A stretch of 64,000 nt of DNA from IMG/VR virus record IMGVR_UViG_3300045988_084761; one strand, given 5' to 3'. The translations under genes were made by a program, and so were the position numbers. Shown here piece after piece: positions 39,150-43,716 of the stretch. Under the pieces are notes generated by a model, which did not search any database, had not been told where the DNA came from, and saw only the letters and a list, made by a program, of their open reading frames with translations. Within the stretch, counting starts at the first letter, position 1. Every line of letters starts with the position of its first letter. The stretch comes from a virus.

Positions 39150-39689
39150 ATGTATAGAAAGATACTTATAATTGTTGATGCTCAAAATGATTTCATCACT
39201 AGGGCGCTAGGTACAAAGGAGGCGGATGCCGCAGTTCCTAATATTGTTGATCTAATTAAACGATTCTGTTGGGAAGAAATTATTTGTACCATGGATACCC
39301 ATGATGACGATTACTTCGATACTTTGGAAGGAAAGAAACTTCCTGTTAAACATTGTATTAAGGCAAGCGTGGGCTGGTGTATGGATTCCAGAGTCGTGAT
39401 TGCGTTGAATAACAAGTTTAATTATTATGAAAAAGACACCTTTGGCAGTACCGATATGGTTAATGAGGTATATGATTCTCTAAAGATGAAGAATCCAGAG
39501 GAAGTAGAAATTCATATCTGCGGATTTTGTACCGATATCTGCGTTATGGCTAACGCGGTTATGCTTCGTGCAGCGTTGCCAAATACTAGAATTATCGTTC
39601 ATTCTAGTGCGTGCGCAGGAGTAACTCCAGAATCGCATGAGGCAGCGCTAACTATTTTCAAAGCTCAACAGATTGATGTGGAGGATTAA
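39150..39689 (+). CDS. isochorismatase-family cysteine hydrolase (nicotinamidase PncA-like)
   Basis: ILIIVDAQNDF N-terminus and a catalytic Cys region typical of nicotinamidase/isochorismatase. Confidence 0.6.
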   Translation: MYRKILIIVDAQNDFITRALGTKEADAAVPNIVDLIKRFCWEEIICTMDTHDDDYFDTLEGKKLPVKHCIKASVGWCMDSRVVIALNNKFNYYEKDTFGSTDMVNEVYDSLKMKNPEEVEIHICGFCTDICVMANAVMLRAALPNTRIIVHSSACAGVTPESHEAALTIFKAQQIDVED

Positions 39690-39692
39690 GAA

Positions 39693-40505
39693 ATGATTAG
39701 TCTGATTAACACGCGCAGTCATTGGACAGATGTAATTGAGCAAAATCATTTTCCCGATGGAACGCTGCATATTAATATGCCGCCCAATTATTTTGATTAC
39801 GATACCGTTCTTTGGGAGTATGAGAACGATGCAGAACTGTTCACTCTAATTTGCGTAAAGGGACACTTTAAAGATTGTCCCTTGAGGCTCGATATGCCAT
39901 ATATTCCTCATGCAAGAATGGATAGAGTGCAAGAACTTGAAGATGTGTTTACCCTTAAATATTTCTGTCAAGTAATCAATGGTCTTCACTTCGATAAAGT
40001 CATTGTAAGAGATGCTCATTCTAATGTAGCATTAGCTCTGCTCGATAGGGTAATTGATCTTACTCCTATTGGAGAAATCAAAGAGGCTATCAAACTTTTT
40101 GAGCATTATGAAAAAGAAACTCCCGTTCTATTTTTCCCGGACGAGGGAGCTATGAAGAGATATTCCACTCCAGCAATTAATCTTCCATACGCCTTTGGAA
40201 TTAAAAAGAGGGATTGGTCTACTGGAAAAATTCTTGGTCTACAACTAATGAATGGTGAGTTGGTTAAAGATAAGGGTGTTCTAATTGTAGACGATATTTG
40301 CTCTCGGGGAGGAACTTTCTATCACGCGGCAAACGCTCTAAAAGAAGCAGGAGCAAAAAATATTTATCTTTACGTCACTCATGCAGAACATACTATGGTT
40401 GAAGGTGATATGTATAATCAGGATATTGTAAAGAAAATCTTTACCACTGATAGCATCTTTAAGCCTGAGTGGGATACTAGAGGAAAGGTAGAAATTGTTC
40501 GATGA
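39693..40505 (+). CDS. ribose-phosphate pyrophosphokinase-like (Prs / ADP-ribose pyrophosphokinase Adps-like)
   Basis: PRTase-type nucleotide-binding loop VLIVDDICSRGGT. 270 aa. Confidence 0.6.
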   Translation: MISLINTRSHWTDVIEQNHFPDGTLHINMPPNYFDYDTVLWEYENDAELFTLICVKGHFKDCPLRLDMPYIPHARMDRVQELEDVFTLKYFCQVINGLHFDKVIVRDAHSNVALALLDRVIDLTPIGEIKEAIKLFEHYEKETPVLFFPDEGAMKRYSTPAINLPYAFGIKKRDWSTGKILGLQLMNGELVKDKGVLIVDDICSRGGTFYHAANALKEAGAKNIYLYVTHAEHTMVEGDMYNQDIVKKIFTTDSIFKPEWDTRGKVEIVR

Positions 40506-40693
40506 CTATTGAAAAGCTTCAAGCACTAAAAATTGCAGCTCTTAAAAATGGAGACGTAAATACAAAGAGAGTGCTTTCTGACATGATTGATTCGTGTCAG
40601 AAAGCAACAATTACTCCGAAGGGAAGAGTGGAACTAACAGAGCAGTTAATTGATGAAACTCTTATTAAGTATCAAAAACTGTGCAAGAAATGA
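40502..40693 (+). CDS. hypothetical protein (63 aa)
   Basis: Overlapping start/stop coupling. Confidence 0.4.
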   Translation: MTIEKLQALKIAALKNGDVNTKRVLSDMIDSCQKATITPKGRVELTEQLIDETLIKYQKLCKK

Positions 40694-40950
40694 TTGATAC
40701 CTGCCCCGCTAACTATTCTGAGAAGTTGCATCAATATCAAGAGGATATGAAAATCGTAAAAATGTGTGCTCCACAGCTGCTTACAGATAAAACAGAGATT
40801 GAAACAAGAGTAAGAGAAATCGCAGCTGCCGCAGGTATAGATCTCCTTAAAGCAAACCGAGGTGCGATTATGAAGTATGTTTCTGCGGCACTCAAAGGTA
40901 AAGCTGATATGAAAATTGTAAGCACTGTTGTTGGGGAGATTCTAAAATGA
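40681..40950 (+). CDS. hypothetical protein (89 aa)
   Basis: Coupled ORF. Confidence 0.4.
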   Translation: MQEMIDTCPANYSEKLHQYQEDMKIVKMCAPQLLTDKTEIETRVREIAAAAGIDLLKANRGAIMKYVSAALKGKADMKIVSTVVGEILK

Positions 40951-41350: not shown

Positions 41351-41354
41351 AAAA

Positions 41355-41398
41355 ATATATGTTATAATATAATAAAGAAATAAGGAAAGGAAGATTTT
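41355..41398 (+). promoter_or_regulatory. conserved promoter/leader motif copy
   Basis: tgttataatataataaagaaataaggaaaggaag. Confidence 0.55.
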
Positions 41399-42988
41399 AT
41401 GAGTTTCTTTGATGTAGCACCTATGTTTGCGGCAGACTATTATAAGATTGGTCATGCGGTTAAAATGCAGCCTGCCGACGCAAAGATGGTGTATTCTACT
41501 TGGACTGCTCGCAGCAATAAATATCATAAAGACTGCGCCAAAACTATGGTGTTTGGCCATCAATATACCATCCAGCGACTGCTTAATTACTGGCAGGCAG
41601 AATTTTTTAATCAGCCCATTGATCTGCTTGAAAGCGAGTGGAACAGGGTAATCAAGGATACTTTCCATCCTGGCTATGCAGATTTCAGCAAGTTTAGGAA
41701 ACTTTATGAGCTTGGCTATCTTCCCATTTCAATTATGGGAGTTCCCGAAGGTACACTTCTTCCTATCGGTATTCCAGATCATGTTATCTTTTCTACTGAT
41801 CCTGAATTTGCATGGCTTCCGCAGTTTATTGAAGATCAGTGGAGTGCAAATAACTGGCTTCCTTCTACTTCTGCCACGACAGCCTTCTATCGACGTAAGC
41901 TAATCGAGCCTTATGTTAAGATGACCTGTGACGATATGTCTGCTCTCCCTCATATGTGCGGTGACTTCTCTCTCCGCGGTCACACTTCACTTGAAGCGGG
42001 CTATATCTCTGGCGCCGCGCACGCTTTGTCTTTTGATAGGACTGCGACCATTGGTTCTAATCTTCTTTTGGAGAAATATTATGGAGCAGATTTAGAGAAT
42101 AATCCTCCTCTAATGGGAACTCCATCTCTGGAGCACTCTGTTGTTGAACAGGGTGTAGCATGGAAAAGAGCGCAGATGTTCAATGGTGAGCTAGAAGCCG
42201 AGGAGCAAGCTCTACTCAATACTTGCCTCTCTGAAAATTGGGAAGTTAATCTTATTGCTGAGATGCTCTTCCTGCGCCATCTTCTTATCAATATTCAGCC
42301 TACTGGGACAATGACTTATGTAGCAGATACATATGATTATTGGGGTGTAGTATCTAAAATTGTTCCTGCATTGAGAGACATTATCGAGCAGCGGGATGGA
42401 TGCCTTTCCATCCGCCCCGATAGCGGAGATCCAGTAAAAATCATTTGCGGGGACACAAGTTTTGCTGTTGATCCTGACTCCCCGGAGGGTAAAGGAACTC
42501 TTGTCAGTCTCTTTGATACTTTTGGCGGCAACCTTAATAGAAAGGGTTATTTTGAGCTTCCCTCTTGTATTCGTGTTATTTATGGCGATGCGATCACTCC
42601 CGAGATCACTGAAAAAATATGTAATTGGTGTGTCAATAATTCTATTTCAGTATCAAATATCTGTTTTGGAATTGGCGCATATACTTATCAATATGTAACT
42701 CGTGACACTAGAGGCTATGCAATTAAGGCTACCGATTGTATTCTTGGAGAAGATGAAATCCAAATCTACAAGATGCCAAAAACCGATCCTGGGAAAAAAT
42801 CTCCTCGTGGATGCGTAGCGGTTGTTAAAGACTCAGAGGGCCAATATAGGCTTGTTGAAAATCTTACTCTTAAAGAAGCCATCGAATATAAGGATAATGT
42901 AATGAAATTCAAAGTAAAAGATGGTGTTTTTGTACGCGAAAACGAGGAAGATTTTTATACAATTAAGAATCGACTGATGGGAGAGTAA
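41399..42988 (+). CDS. nadV: nicotinamide phosphoribosyltransferase family (NadV/NAMPT, or nicotinamide-ADPR transferase Namat-like)
   Basis: 529 aa. N-terminal FDVAPMFAADYYKIGH...VFGHQYTIQ is typical of the NAMPT family. Confidence 0.7.
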   Translation: MSFFDVAPMFAADYYKIGHAVKMQPADAKMVYSTWTARSNKYHKDCAKTMVFGHQYTIQRLLNYWQAEFFNQPIDLLESEWNRVIKDTFHPGYADFSKFRKLYELGYLPISIMGVPEGTLLPIGIPDHVIFSTDPEFAWLPQFIEDQWSANNWLPSTSATTAFYRRKLIEPYVKMTCDDMSALPHMCGDFSLRGHTSLEAGYISGAAHALSFDRTATIGSNLLLEKYYGADLENNPPLMGTPSLEHSVVEQGVAWKRAQMFNGELEAEEQALLNTCLSENWEVNLIAEMLFLRHLLINIQPTGTMTYVADTYDYWGVVSKIVPALRDIIEQRDGCLSIRPDSGDPVKIICGDTSFAVDPDSPEGKGTLVSLFDTFGGNLNRKGYFELPSCIRVIYGDAITPEITEKICNWCVNNSISVSNICFGIGAYTYQYVTRDTRGYAIKATDCILGEDEIQIYKMPKTDPGKKSPRGCVAVVKDSEGQYRLVENLTLKEAIEYKDNVMKFKVKDGVFVRENEEDFYTIKNRLMGE

Positions 42989-42993
42989 ATCTT

Positions 42994-43716
42994 ATGACAA
43001 TAAGAGTTCAAAGAATCATTAACTGGATTAAAAAATATTTTATCGACAACGGCCCGGACTGCAAAGCTGTTATTGGTATTTCTGGAGGAAAAGATTCTAC
43101 TGTCGCTGCCGCACTGCTTTGTAAAGCTATTGGGCCAGAAAATGTAATCGCAGTTCAAATGCCACAAGGGTATCAATCAGACATTGATATTTCAAATGAA
43201 GTTATTGAGTATCTAGGCATTAAAGAACATTATAATATCAACATTGGAGAGGCTTGCAAAGCAACTTTTTTCTCCCTACCCTCTGATATTCGTAATCTTC
43301 CTCAAGTTGTAAGTAACGTTCCAGCAAGAGAAAGAATGAATATTCTTTATGCCATCGCGGCTGCTCGACATGGTAGAGTTGCAAACACTTGTAATAGAAG
43401 TGAAAATTATGTTGGTTATTCAACCAAATTTGGTGATTCCGCGGGAGATTTTTCAATTCTGCACAATTACACAGTAACAGAAGTTAAAGAGATTGGTTTA
43501 GAACTTGGTCTACCGGAGAAATTTATAGAAAAAGTTCCAGAAGATGGATTAACTGGACTCTCAGATGAAGAGAATCTAGGTTTTTCTTATAAAACTCTTG
43601 ATAACTTTTTGCTATATCGTATTACTCCTCCGTATGAAGTATATAAAAATATTGAGCAGAGACACAAGAGAAACCTACATAAAACAGAGGAAATGCCAAT
43701 CTGCCCCTTCTTTTAA
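42994..43716 (+). CDS. nadE: NH3-dependent NAD+ synthetase
   Basis: PP-loop VIGISGGKDSTVAAAL and overall NadE-like length. Confidence 0.7.
   Translation: MTIRVQRIINWIKKYFIDNGPDCKAVIGISGGKDSTVAAALLCKAIGPENVIAVQMPQGYQSDIDISNEVIEYLGIKEHYNINIGEACKATFFSLPSDIRNLPQVVSNVPARERMNILYAIAAARHGRVANTCNRSENYVGYSTKFGDSAGDFSILHNYTVTEVKEIGLELGLPEKFIEKVPEDGLTGLSDEENLGFSYKTLDNFLLYRITPPYEVYKNIEQRHKRNLHKTEEMPICPFF

Follow-up and report, generated by a model that had tools for sequence, protein, structure and literature searches.

In the classical NARP1 pathway, the enzymes Adps and Namat make NAD+ straight from ADPR and nicotinamide. The adenine 'selectivity clamp' helix (SCH) of Namat has the published consensus GSXΦXΦXΦTRD, in which X is mostly aromatic and positions 3 and 7 stack on the adenine; this clamp is needed for the use of ADPR-PP and is dispensable for PRPP chemistry (PMC12774641). 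In the human enzyme NAMPT, Asp219 binds the amide group of nicotinamide and sets specificity (PMC4442680, PMC7096376), and human NAPRT carries Ser at the equivalent site (PMC4442680). The D215A variant of SpβL1 Namat shows an 8.1-fold decrease in nicotinamide-dependent NAD+ output (PMC12774641).

Judged from its sequence, the gut phage locus described here probably takes another course: its four genes would rebuild NAD+ from breakdown products via nicotinic acid, passing through nicotinate and deamido-NAD. Such a module, of which we found no prior description in the literature, would vary a counter-defence pathway already known from phages; it is common in Clostridia chromosomes.

Layout of the locus

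The window, a stretch of viral DNA of 64,000 nucleotides, had been annotated in a first pass as carrying a cluster of nicotinamidase-like, Prs-like, NAMPT-like and NadE genes at 39150-43716. Four ORFs, all on the plus strand and tightly packed, lie exactly there, and their family matches, all of a significance well beyond chance, agree with this description. The features of the region are:

39150..39689, + strand: PncA-like nicotinamidase, 179 aa (PF00857); predicted step 1
39693..40505, + strand: Adps homologue, 270 aa, PRPS-like fold (phrog_619); predicted step 2
40502..40950, + strand: YqeY-like gene, split in the window (PF09424); passenger
40947..41315, + strand: hydrophobic protein, 122 aa; lineage-specific passenger
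41399..42988, + strand: Namat-family transferase, 529 aa, remodelled pyridine pocket; predicted step 3
42029..42052, + strand: pocket segment SFDRTATI, with Ala216 at 42044-42046
42116..42136, + strand: pocket segment G240...P-S243-L-E-H246; Gly240 and Ser243 changed, His246 kept
42674..42706, + strand: SCH motif GAYTYQYVTRD, signature of ADPR-PP-using Namat
42994..43716, + strand: NadE, single-domain, NH3-dependent, 240 aa (PF02540); predicted step 4
43715..43745, + strand: terminator-like hairpin, a weak candidate from a consensus scan

Unlike in Phass-1, where Adps directly adjoins the transferase, two lineage-specific ORFs separate the Adps homologue from the NAMPT-like gene in the window. 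The first is YqeY-like (PF09424, E=2.6e-8, on its 3' part). It forms a whole ORF of 149 aa in the near-identical contigs L077-L079, and its split in the window results from a one-base homopolymer difference (A5 versus A6 in L077-L079) near 40673-40678. Present at just seven closely related loci in our neighbourhood survey, it is a passenger outside the conserved module. The 122-aa hydrophobic protein had no match in Pfam, PHROG or NCBIfam and was found at just eight loci, again closely related. Just past the NadE stop codon, the consensus scan picked up a 13-bp stem followed by a T-run, which might mark the 3' end of the cluster. In-frame TAG is absent from all four module genes, as checked in their ORFs. 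The phage recodes TAG in genes outside the module.

The Adps homologue and the Namat-family transferase

The Prs-like protein scores 90 bits against TIGR01251, below the 113-bit cutoff of this model, and hence does not qualify as a canonical PRPP synthetase. It matches phrog_619 (E=3.6e-66) and is 39% identical to SpβL1 Adps (E=2e-45), an enzyme validated biochemically; the best PRPS of known structure reaches only 67 bits, and the long C-terminus of PRPS is missing. All contacts of ICP1 Adps (F18/R87/H121/D161/K185/R187/D212/D213) are kept as F20/R75/H109/D150/K171/R173/D200/D201. By these sequence criteria we assign it as an Adps homologue, a predicted ADPR pyrophosphokinase with intact catalytic residues.

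The NAMPT-like protein (PF04095, E=3.6e-24; phrog_448, E=8.9e-136) reaches 329 bits against SpβL1 Namat (9w5x/9w5w) and about 137 bits against human NAMPT; its nearest NCBIfam model is named nicotinate phosphoribosyltransferase, which is a name only. The best fold match of its AF2 model (pLDDT 92.6) is nicotinamide-bound Namat 9w5x (TM 0.94). In a neighbor-joining tree the protein falls within the Namat family (node 100/100), inside a clade with an altered substrate pocket that is monophyletic in this tree with a support of 55/100. Alignment, tree and model thus assign it to the Namat family and not to housekeeping NadV. The core residues D13, Y15, F190, R193, H246, R339, D341 and G396-D397-A398 are kept, as is the clamp loop partner Lys41-Tyr42 (41519-41524). 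In the clamp itself, Tyr fills positions 3, 5 and 7 and Ala takes the place of Ser at position 2, whereas true NadV proteins read GGGLLQ..RD in this region. Within the clade, position 3 is aromatic in most sequences (Leu, Met or Val in a few Oscillospiraceae-type copies), and the aromatic residue at position 7 is missing in some sub-lineages. Collectively, these data bear out the earlier proposal of an Adps/Namat-type pair: neither of the outcomes named beforehand as refuting it, a NAMPT homologue of the NadV clade or a canonical PRPP synthetase, was observed.

The altered pyridine pocket and its genetic linkage

In alignments, Ala216 of the window transferase stands where SpβL1 Namat has Asp215 and human NAMPT has Asp219. 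Ala occupies this site in all of the best 120 database homologues, while Asp is found in classical Namat and in NadV; some altered-pocket sub-lineages carry Ser, the same residue as in NAPRT. Classical Namat has Ser239 and Ala242 (human Ser241 and Ala244) where the window transferase has Gly240 and Ser243; likewise, Gly188 (41960-41962) stands in for His187 (human His191). An unbiased scan of about 490 columns returned only columns 242, 187, 239 and 215 as both perfectly separating the two types and highly conserved, and the same kind of scan of Adps, run as a control, yielded no discriminating conserved column between altered-pocket and classical loci. Since the NadV outgroup has the classical state at all four columns, the altered state is derived. 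In Namat crystal structures, columns 215 and 242 contact nicotinamide, column 187 aligns with the tunnel residue His191 of human NAMPT, and column 239 aligns with human Ser241, which is placed at the pyridine site. All four positions map to this site or its tunnel, and the window transferase is not a classical Namat. Also kept are the arginines for which contacts to the 3-substituent or carboxylate have been reported (human R196 and R311, window R193 and R339). Human NAMPT, which has Asp219, was crystallised with nicotinic acid according to the titles of 6ta0/6ta2, so that the Asp residue is not an absolute barrier.

We surveyed 159 loci, 113 of the altered-pocket type (31 viral, 82 from genomes) and 46 of the classical Asp type; the bacterial loci were fetched with patterns that include Ser243, and the sample is biased to the altered-pocket type. 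A nicotinamidase gene lies within ±4.5 kb at 102 of the 113 altered-pocket loci and at none of the 46 classical Namat loci; NadE is near 89 of the 113. Whole-locus tblastn detected Adps, PncA and NadE at 31, 30 and 31 of the 31 viral altered-pocket loci, and at 79, 78 and 56 of the 82 genome loci, 65 of which also have NrtR. The corresponding counts for the 46 classical loci were 44, 0 and 0 (Fisher p=3e-22 for the linkage, uncorrected for phylogeny). About a third of the bacterial altered-pocket loci have no adjacent NadE and presumably use one encoded elsewhere. The linkage holds across about 33% identity, and gene order varies between sub-lineages. The pocket switch is essentially one ancient event, so the covariation reflects a linkage that has lasted rather than one that evolved independently several times. 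The initial view that the nicotinamidase and NadE merely flank the pair has to be revised: both look like integral parts and go with the altered-pocket clade.

The PncA-like protein belongs to the isochorismatase family (PF00857, E=5e-20) and can be aligned with nicotinamidases of known structure (5zn8/6a8l, and 1ilw from P. horikoshii). Its catalytic Asp10 (39177-39179), the metal site Asp49-x-His51 (39294-39302) and His68 (39351-39353), Lys95 (39432-39434) and Cys131 (39540-39542) are each kept in at least 99 of the 102 clade-associated copies.

Could the locus be a classical NARP1 pair accompanied by unrelated salvage genes, in which nicotinamide and ADPR-PP still yield NAD+ and PncA and NadE feed the host Preiss-Handler pathway in parallel? 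An Adps and a clamp-bearing Namat-family partner are both there, the remaining catalytic core of the transferase is intact, and metabolic genes with a shared theme are often grouped together in phages. We nevertheless regard this as quite unlikely: the amide-binding Asp is replaced throughout the clade, an exchange of the D215A kind is costly to Namat, and four pocket or tunnel positions switched together with Adps left unswitched. Moreover, PncA and NadE are near-universal companions of the altered pocket only, the nicotinamidase would compete for nicotinamide if co-expressed, and without PncB and NadD the two form no pathway. Of the original NARP-type designation, the Adps/Namat-type pair stands, but the core differs from classical NARP1 in having Ala216 for the amide-binding Asp.

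A predicted nicotinate route to NAD+

The altered pocket shows a strict linkage with PncA and NadE that the classical pocket never has, so that the four genes look like one pathway; and since an upstream nicotinamidase would drain nicotinamide, the arrangement would make sense only with nicotinate as the substrate. From residues and gene context, we infer that the transferase has switched to nicotinate, with NaAD as intermediate. The PncA-like enzyme would convert nicotinamide released by NADases to nicotinate and NH3; Adps would form ADPR-PP and AMP from ADPR and ATP, as in NARP1; the transferase would combine ADPR-PP and nicotinate directly into deamido-NAD (NaAD) and PPi; and NadE would turn NaAD, ATP and NH3 into NAD+. 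The predicted net reaction is ADPR + nicotinamide + 2 ATP -> NAD+ + 2 AMP + 2 PPi, the NH3 from the first step balancing that used in the fourth, and a NaMN/NMN adenylyltransferase would be unnecessary. Beyond the module, no further family occurs in more than 12 of the 113 altered-pocket neighbourhoods, hence neither NadD nor NadM is conserved; nor was NadD, NadM or an NMNAT found among the scanned ORFs of at least 140 aa in the window, which is part of the phage genome.

Part of this evidence would also suit a PRPP-based analogue of the Preiss-Handler pathway, with the Prs-like protein making PRPP and the NAMPT-like protein, as a non-orthologous nicotinate phosphoribosyltransferase, making NaMN for host NadD and phage NadE. 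The pocket appears nicotinate-adapted, Namat is also active on PRPP in vitro (PMC12774641), the pairing of PncA with NadE recalls the canonical pncA-pncB-nadD-nadE operons, and the nearest NCBIfam model bears the fitting name, though a name only. Yet the clamp, with which PRPP chemistry can dispense, is kept; the partner is Adps-like and not Prs-like, falling below the TIGR01251 cutoff; SpβL1 Adps assayed as a PRPP synthetase gave no measurable product; the F18 and R87 contacts to the adenine-bearing part of ADPR are preserved; and nadD, unlike in canonical operons, is part of none of the 113 neighbourhoods. This makes the PRPP-based scheme unlikely.

NadE (PF02540, E=4.8e-46) exceeds the 63.65-bit cutoff of TIGR00552 with 152 bits and carries the P-loop ISGGKDSTV (43078-43104); its highest-scoring matches in the PDB are NAD synthetases that depend on NH3. 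The top one, 3fiu (108.4 bits), is presumably the Francisella NMN synthetase. It brings up a Francisella-type route in which the transferase would form NaMN (or no NaAD would arise), NadE would convert NaMN to NMN, and a further NMN adenylyltransferase would follow. The 3fiu score is tied, however, with that of the classical archaeal NadE 2e18 (108.1 bits); the known adaptation accompanies replacement of NadD by NadM (PMC3376133), and NadM/NMNAT is conserved near none of the 113 loci and is missing among the scanned window ORFs. With the clamp and Adps arguments counting here too, we give this route hardly any weight.

With the nicotinate route as the preferred reading, the phage might benefit from NAD+ restored after NADase-type immunity, or simply from boosted NAD+. 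By analogy, an anti-defence role is plausible: classical NARP1, which shares the first step and inputs, demonstrably counters NAD+-depleting systems and is active only upon ADPR accumulation, and the products of NADases are precisely ADPR and nicotinamide. That the genes instead form an auxiliary metabolic set, which keeps up or raises NAD+ to serve phage replication and RNA/DNA transactions and is not dedicated to counter-defence, is possible, if doubtful; this reading bears on selective benefit rather than on mechanism and can hold alongside the nicotinate route. It draws on the occurrence of the module on many Clostridia chromosomes, usually beside the gene for the NAD-metabolism regulator NrtR, which suggests an origin in housekeeping recycling. 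In the NrtR family a Nudix-like domain is proposed to bind ADP-ribose-type metabolites, and this neighbour fits an ADPR-recycling role of the chromosomal operons. In one MAG the chromosomal module lies beside ribosomal-protein genes. A host lineage of the Clostridia type may have been the source from which the phage took up the module; the closest chromosomal relative of the phage module is found in an Oscillospiraceae MAG.

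Gene Content of the NAD Cluster and of the Phage that Carries It

The first-pass annotation had proposed a cluster for NAD+ salvage or reconstitution comprising nicotinamidase-like, Prs-like, NAMPT-like and NadE genes, and all four open reading frames were recovered on the + strand with exact coordinates:

39150-39689, + strand, isochorismatase-family (PncA-like) ORF, 179 aa (PF00857, E=5e-20)
39693-40505, + strand, Prs-like (Adps) ORF, 270 aa (phrog_619, E=3.6e-66; TIGR01251, 90 bits, below the 113-bit cutoff)
41399-42988, + strand, NAMPT-like ORF, 529 aa (PF04095, E=3.6e-24; phrog_448, E=8.9e-136)
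42994-43716, + strand, NadE ORF, 240 aa (PF02540, E=4.8e-46; TIGR00552, 152 bits, above the 63.65-bit cutoff)
43715-43745, + strand, terminator-like hairpin 3' of NadE

Two lineage-specific ORFs, a YqeY-like gene and one for a 122-aa hydrophobic protein, lie between the Prs-like and NAMPT-like genes. The YqeY-like gene (40502-40950) is broken into two frames at an A5 run (40673-40678) that reads A6 in two otherwise identical contigs (L077 and L078), where the ORF is intact (149 aa). The split had suggested a programmed frameshift but reflects this one-base homopolymer difference; an assembly error in the homopolymer or a slippage variant is the probable cause of the A5 run.

The source of the window is a large phage that encodes 31 tRNA genes, a tmRNA and a suppressor tRNA with a CTA anticodon. 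The tRNA genes form a dense + strand array (9993-28761) that includes the tmRNA (16273-16588; tag DNDYFENYLAA) and the amber-suppressor tRNA (27795-27869), which ARAGORN labels tRNA-Pyl. In-frame TAG codons are present in several genes of the window and in none of the four NAD genes. Reading TAG as a sense codon joins fragments into long ORFs (49854-51188, 58396-59307, 23815-24987, 25015-26352, 59588-60214 and 61657-62637), examples being products of 444 aa with 10 in-frame TAGs and of 303 aa with 11, and TAG is the stop codon of just 3 of the 46 code-11 ORFs of at least 100 aa. This pattern is consistent with a subset of the genes being recoded (code 15, TAG=Gln), as is the case in Phass-1, a TAG-recoding gut phage that is the closest named relative (65% identity between the NAMPT-like proteins). 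A megablast search with the cluster against 50,697 phage records gave no match, and relatives were found at the protein level only.

The NAD cluster is bracketed by an RNA/tRNA-repair-type gene set (34575-38911 and 43780-46505) encoding an RlaP nucleotidyltransferase, three calcineurin-like phosphoesterases, an RNA ligase (424 aa), a Thg1-like tRNA-His guanylyltransferase and an AAA_33/KTI12-type kinase. Further upstream (28891-33229) lies the gene for a 507-aa DUF2828 plus DUF7788 protein and, after it, one for an 811-aa protein that carries the shoulder and repeat domains of Major Vault Protein (PF11978, E=8e-18); such a vault-like protein is unusual in a phage. An AAA/nSTAND3-type NTPase of 373 aa is encoded at 20362-21483.

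An Adps/Namat-Type Pair with an Altered Pyridine Pocket

The Prs-like protein is 39% identical (E=2e-45) to Adps from SpβL1, an enzyme demonstrated to pyrophosphorylate ADP-ribose (ADPR); the best solved PRPP synthetase reached 67 bits. All catalytic and substrate-contacting residues of ICP1 Adps (Phe18, Arg87, His121, Asp161, Lys185, Asp212, Asp213) are kept. The canonical PRPP synthetase that would have spoken against the first-pass annotation was hence not what we found: the protein has the PRPS fold and the Adps catalytic set, scores below the TIGR01251 cutoff, and is nearer to Adps than to PRPP synthetases.

The NAMPT-like protein scored 329 bits against SpβL1 Namat (PDB 9w5x and 9w5w) versus about 137 bits against human NAMPT. 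Its AlphaFold2 model (pLDDT 92.6, pTM 0.90) has the same two Namat structures as best structural match in Foldseek (TM 0.94), with Haemophilus ducreyi NadV and human NAMPT ranking behind. Namat is distinguished by an adenine selectivity clamp, consisting of a helix with the signature GSXΦXΦXΦTRD, in which X is mostly aromatic and positions 3 and 7 contact adenine, and of an Arg/Lys/Tyr stacking residue in the β1-β2 loop (PMC12774641). Both elements are present in the window: the helix reads GAYTYQYVTRD (42674-42706), with Tyr at positions 3, 5 and 7 and Ala for Ser at position 2 as the sole deviation, and Lys41-Tyr42 align with the loop residue Arg40 of SpβL1. The equivalent motif in true NadV proteins (phages Va3 and BL02) is GGGLLQ..RD. 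In a neighbor-joining tree with 73 representatives and true NadV as the root, the Namat family was monophyletic (100/100), so that the grouping with NadV considered as an alternative was not seen, and the Adps/Namat-type nature suggested for the pair stands.

In the Namat crystal structure, Asp215 (SpβL1 numbering) hydrogen-bonds nicotinamide, and the D215A exchange lowers NAD+ output 8.1-fold (PMC12774641). By alignment this residue is the homolog of human NAMPT Asp219, at whose structural equivalent human nicotinate phosphoribosyltransferase carries Ser (PMC4442680, PMC7096376). Ala216 replaces it in the window protein (SFDRTATI versus SFTGTDTI); Ala also occupies the site in the Phass-1 homolog and in all 120 best database homologs, down to 41% identity, and Ser is found in some sub-lineages of what we call the altered-pocket clade, as opposed to the classical proteins that keep Asp. 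When about 490 alignment columns were scanned, with no positions preselected, for those that separate the two groups, only four were both perfectly discriminating and highly conserved.

Discriminating positions of the transferase (classical to altered-pocket state)
SpβL1 242: Ala to Ser; window Ser243; human NAMPT Ala244
SpβL1 187: His to Gly/Ser; window Gly188; human NAMPT His191
SpβL1 239: Ser to Gly; window Gly240; human NAMPT Ser241
SpβL1 215: Asp to Ala/Ser; window Ala216; human NAMPT Asp219

Human NAMPT His191 lies in the tunnel adjoining the pyridine site, and Ser241 (SpβL1 239) we take to be at the pyridine site itself. At Namat positions 215 and 242 the crystal structure shows contacts to nicotinamide (PMC12774641), and the classical combination of Asp215 and Ala242 is missing from the window protein, from all of its 120 closest homologs and from all 113 loci of the clade. 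Since NadV outgroups have the classical state at all four positions, the clade of the window is the derived one. The catalytic His is kept. Also kept are the arginines (Arg196 and Arg311 in human NAMPT, Arg193 and Arg339 in the window) for which contacts to the 3-substituent or carboxylate of the pyridine have been reported. Residue 213 was considered as a carboxylate partner and dropped for lack of conservation: other members of the clade have Gly, Asn, Lys or Leu where the window has Arg. A control scan of Adps yielded zero discriminating conserved columns, with ligand contacts equally kept in the classical and altered-pocket groups, which places the change in the transferase alone, at its pyridine pocket.

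The transferase of the window also has a 32-residue helical insertion after the catalytic His (42146-42286; residues 250-296, about 47 residues versus 15 in SpβL1 Namat), modeled with high confidence as helices. The phage and Oscillospiraceae sub-lineages have this insertion and the Clostridium copies lack it, so that it has no link to the pocket switch.

The two flanking enzymes have the residues expected for their predicted functions. In the PncA-like protein, a predicted nicotinamidase, the catalytic triad (D10, K95, C131) and the metal site (D49, H51, H68) are each kept in at least 99 of 102 copies; its weak score against the NCBIfam PncA equivalog model (21.6 bits; cutoff 174) marks the window protein as divergent. 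NadE is a single PP-loop domain of the NH3-type (ISGGKDSTV) lacking a glutaminase domain, its best PDB matches are NH3-dependent NAD synthetases, and NAD+ synthetase activity is predicted. A Francisella-type route via an NMN synthetase appears very improbable: the best PDB match of NadE, 3fiu, presumably the Francisella enzyme, is tied with a classical NadE, and the NadM protein that such a route requires was neither conserved in the altered-pocket neighborhoods nor detected among the window ORFs scanned.

Linkage of the Altered-Pocket Transferase to PncA and NadE

A total of 159 loci encoding a full-length Namat-family protein were drawn from IMG/VR, annotated phages, assemblies and a set of one genome per species, and their neighbors were scored by tblastn and ORF clustering.

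Gene families per group of loci (whole-locus tblastn)
Classical Asp/Ala-pocket loci (n=46): Adps 44, PncA-like 0, NadE 0, NrtR 0
Altered-pocket viral loci (n=31): Adps 31, PncA-like 30, NadE 31, NrtR 0
Altered-pocket genome-collection loci (n=82): Adps 79, PncA-like 78, NadE 56, NrtR 65

The one viral altered-pocket locus that lacks a PncA-like gene is on a contig of 9 kb that is cut off on the upstream side. Two apparent NadE matches in classical loci proved to be NADAR-like ORFs brought in by single-linkage clustering. Within 4.5 kb on either side of the 113 altered-pocket genes, only four families, Adps (109), PncA-like (102), NadE (89) and NrtR (63), occurred in more than 12 neighborhoods. 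A NaMN/NMN adenylyltransferase was neither conserved in these neighborhoods nor detected among the scanned window ORFs of at least 140 aa; likewise, the cluster has no PncB-type nicotinate phosphoribosyltransferase and no NadD, and neither is conserved in the 113 neighborhoods. Gene order varies by sub-lineage, with PncA up- or downstream and NadE 0-5 kb away. The classical and altered-pocket clades received 57/100 and 55/100 in the tree. Because the pocket switch goes back to what is essentially a single old event, the Fisher test (p=3e-22) overstates independence; the real signal is that the linkage persists despite rearrangements and at identities as low as about 33%.

These data bear on the simplest reading of the cluster, a classical NARP1 system with incidental salvage genes. 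We consider it improbable, as it is hard to square with the pocket changes and the D215A data, and with PncA and NadE being absent from all 46 classical loci versus near-universal in the altered-pocket clade.

The altered-pocket clade is widespread in Clostridia: 379 stretches were confirmed in species-representative genomes of Clostridium, Oscillospiraceae/Ruminococcus, Lachnospiraceae and Cellulosilyticaceae, in a scan whose patterns included Ser243 and whose sample is therefore biased to this type. The usual arrangement is nrtR-adps-pncA-transferase-(nadE), as in Clostridium beijerinckii GCA_013149405.1 (locus L075, 4910-9470) and many of the loci L082-L159; Lachnospiraceae instead have pncA-adps-transferase-nadE-nrtR. 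One cluster of the tree (100/100) unites the window, its 77% relatives and the Phass-1 group with a chromosomal Oscillospiraceae copy, whose pncA-adps-transferase-nadE operon adjoins rpmG-secE-nusG-rplK-rplA. NrtR, a Nudix-related protein, regulates NAD metabolism and has an effector domain proposed to bind ADP-ribose-type metabolites (PMC2330246). The 2008 survey of its regulon lists prs-nadV and pncA-pncB-nadD-nadE operons without the Clostridia arrangement (PMC2330246), of which we found no description in the literature searched. The whole module is also present, at 76% identity, on a contig of 148,971 bp (L080; CALWOP010000177.1) in an Oscillospiraceae MAG, probably a related phage genome and a weak hint to the host; copies in contigs binned as Nanoarchaeia and Azoarcus MAGs (L125, L148) may be binning artefacts.

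A Predicted Deamidated Route to NAD+ and Its Relation to Known Systems

Judged from the sequences and their linkage, the likeliest mechanism, and one we hold to be rather probable, is a four-step scheme via nicotinate and deamido-NAD (NaAD). PncA would deamidate nicotinamide to nicotinate; Adps would convert ADPR and ATP into pyrophosphorylated ADPR (ADPR-PP); the Namat-derived transferase would couple nicotinate with ADPR-PP to yield NaAD; and NadE would amidate NaAD to NAD+. Such a scheme would explain the loss of the amide-binding Asp, as the transferase would use nicotinate, and the retention of the adenine clamp and of Adps through the use of ADPR-PP. It would likewise account for the near-universal nicotinamidase, an enzyme that would starve a nicotinamide-using Namat, and for NadE in all viral altered-pocket loci, and it would require neither NadD nor NadM. 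A PRPP-based analog of the Preiss-Handler pathway, in which the transferase makes NaMN and relies on the host NadD, would also fit a pocket that appears nicotinate-adapted, and Namat keeps PRPP activity in vitro; we nevertheless judge it unlikely, given that the adenine clamp is kept, the partner is Adps-like and nadD is not conserved in the altered-pocket neighborhoods.

Building on the four-step scheme, we lean slightly toward viewing the transferase as a nicotinate ADP-ribose transferase (ADPR-PP + nicotinate to NaAD) that, with PncA, Adps and NadE, would constitute a fourth, deamidated NAD+ reconstitution pathway bypassing PncB and NadD, widespread in Clostridia chromosomes, usually with NrtR, and borrowed by large TAG-recoding gut phages, plausibly to survive NADase-based immunity. 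Whatever its chemistry, the module may be there for general NAD+ upkeep rather than defense evasion; a housekeeping origin is favored by the chromosomal operons, yet the inputs of the pathway are exactly the products of NADases. The literature searched contained no record of direct NaAD synthesis from nicotinate and ADPR-PP. A PncA/NadE-coupled Namat clade is not described in the NARP1 papers and their supplements, the phAss-1 genome paper or our full-text search, which also returned no link of NARP1 or Namat to NadE, PncA, nicotinate or NaAD.

NARP1 consists of Adps and Namat (Osterman et al., bioRxiv 10.1101/2024.02.11.579819; structures PMC12774641, PMC13586617), a two-gene system that joins ADPR-PP and nicotinamide directly into NAD+ and counters NAD+-depleting defense. 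The NARP-type assignment of the first-pass annotation holds in part. The window matches NARP1 in its Adps with the full catalytic set, in a clamp-bearing Namat-family transferase whose best sequence and fold match is Namat, in being phage-encoded and co-oriented, and presumably in its inputs, ADPR and nicotinamide. It departs from classical NARP1 in the nicotinamide pocket, where Ala216 stands for the amide-binding Asp and the three other changed positions align to the pyridine site or tunnel, and in gene composition, since nicotinamidase and NadE appear to be integral to the module. Moreover, the predicted product of the transferase is NaAD rather than NAD+, and four steps with one extra ATP would replace two. 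The first half of the module thus resembles NARP1 and the second half the end of the Preiss-Handler pathway (PncA-PncB-NadD-NadE), with which it shares the first and last enzymes and NaAD as predicted penultimate intermediate. In place of the PncB and NadD steps (nicotinate to NaMN to NaAD, with PRPP and ATP), the module is predicted to use Adps and the Namat-derived transferase, which would re-use the ADP-ribose skeleton.

NARP2, which combines NadV/Nampt with a bifunctional NMNAT-Nudix protein (e.g., Vibrio phage KVP40), also rebuilds NAD+ in phage-infected cells with a NAMPT-superfamily enzyme; however, its NadV prefers PRPP, has the clamp-less motif and an Asp/Ala pocket, lacks an Adps partner and requires an NMN adenylyltransferase, none of which applies to the window. 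NARP3 (PnuC and NadR) was rejected, its enzymes being unrelated. Chromosomal Prs-like and NAMPT-like pairs with NrtR, as in the Clostridia operons, are known from the NrtR-regulated prs-nadV operons of gamma-proteobacteria (PMC2330246), two-gene operons without pncA or nadE that we compared by their published description only, and from bacterial NARP1 homologs (Paenibacillus foliorum; PMC12774641). They show that the same chemistry also serves bacterial NAD recycling, and NrtR-associated recycling operons are a candidate origin of NARP1-type pathways.

The four-step prediction is specific, widespread and directly testable. If confirmed, it would add a new reaction and route to NAD metabolism, in which ADP-ribose is recycled into the deamidated branch and two textbook enzymes are bypassed, and would widen the NAD+ arms race between phages and bacteria to uncultivated gut phages of Clostridia. 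Namat-family proteins with Ala/Ser at position 215 and Ser at 242, encoded beside PncA and NadE, should then not be annotated as nicotinamide or nicotinate phosphoribosyltransferases. The detour might pay in hosts that deamidate nicotinamide fast, through retention of the charged nicotinate in the cell, or through its ATP-driven last step.

A precedent for NARP1 operons extended by enzymes that widen the usable inputs is NARP1-AP, i.e., NARP1 plus the Macro-domain ADPR-1''-phosphate phosphatase Adpp (bioRxiv 10.64898/2026.01.28.702374); the extension in the window is on the pyridine side (PncA, NadE) and not on the ADPR side. No Macro domain was detected in the cluster ORFs or in the window ORFs scanned. 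The neighboring Metallophos genes were considered as an aRES-countering phosphatase and rejected, the published Adpp being a Macro-domain protein to which they are unrelated; we assign them to the RNA-repair context because they sit with RNA ligase, Thg1, RlaP and the kinase. NADAR-like ORFs adjoin classical (Asp-type) NARP1 operons in two IMG/VR contigs (L041, 3694-4077; L035, 9729-10220) and may represent a further ADPR-processing accessory of NARP1.
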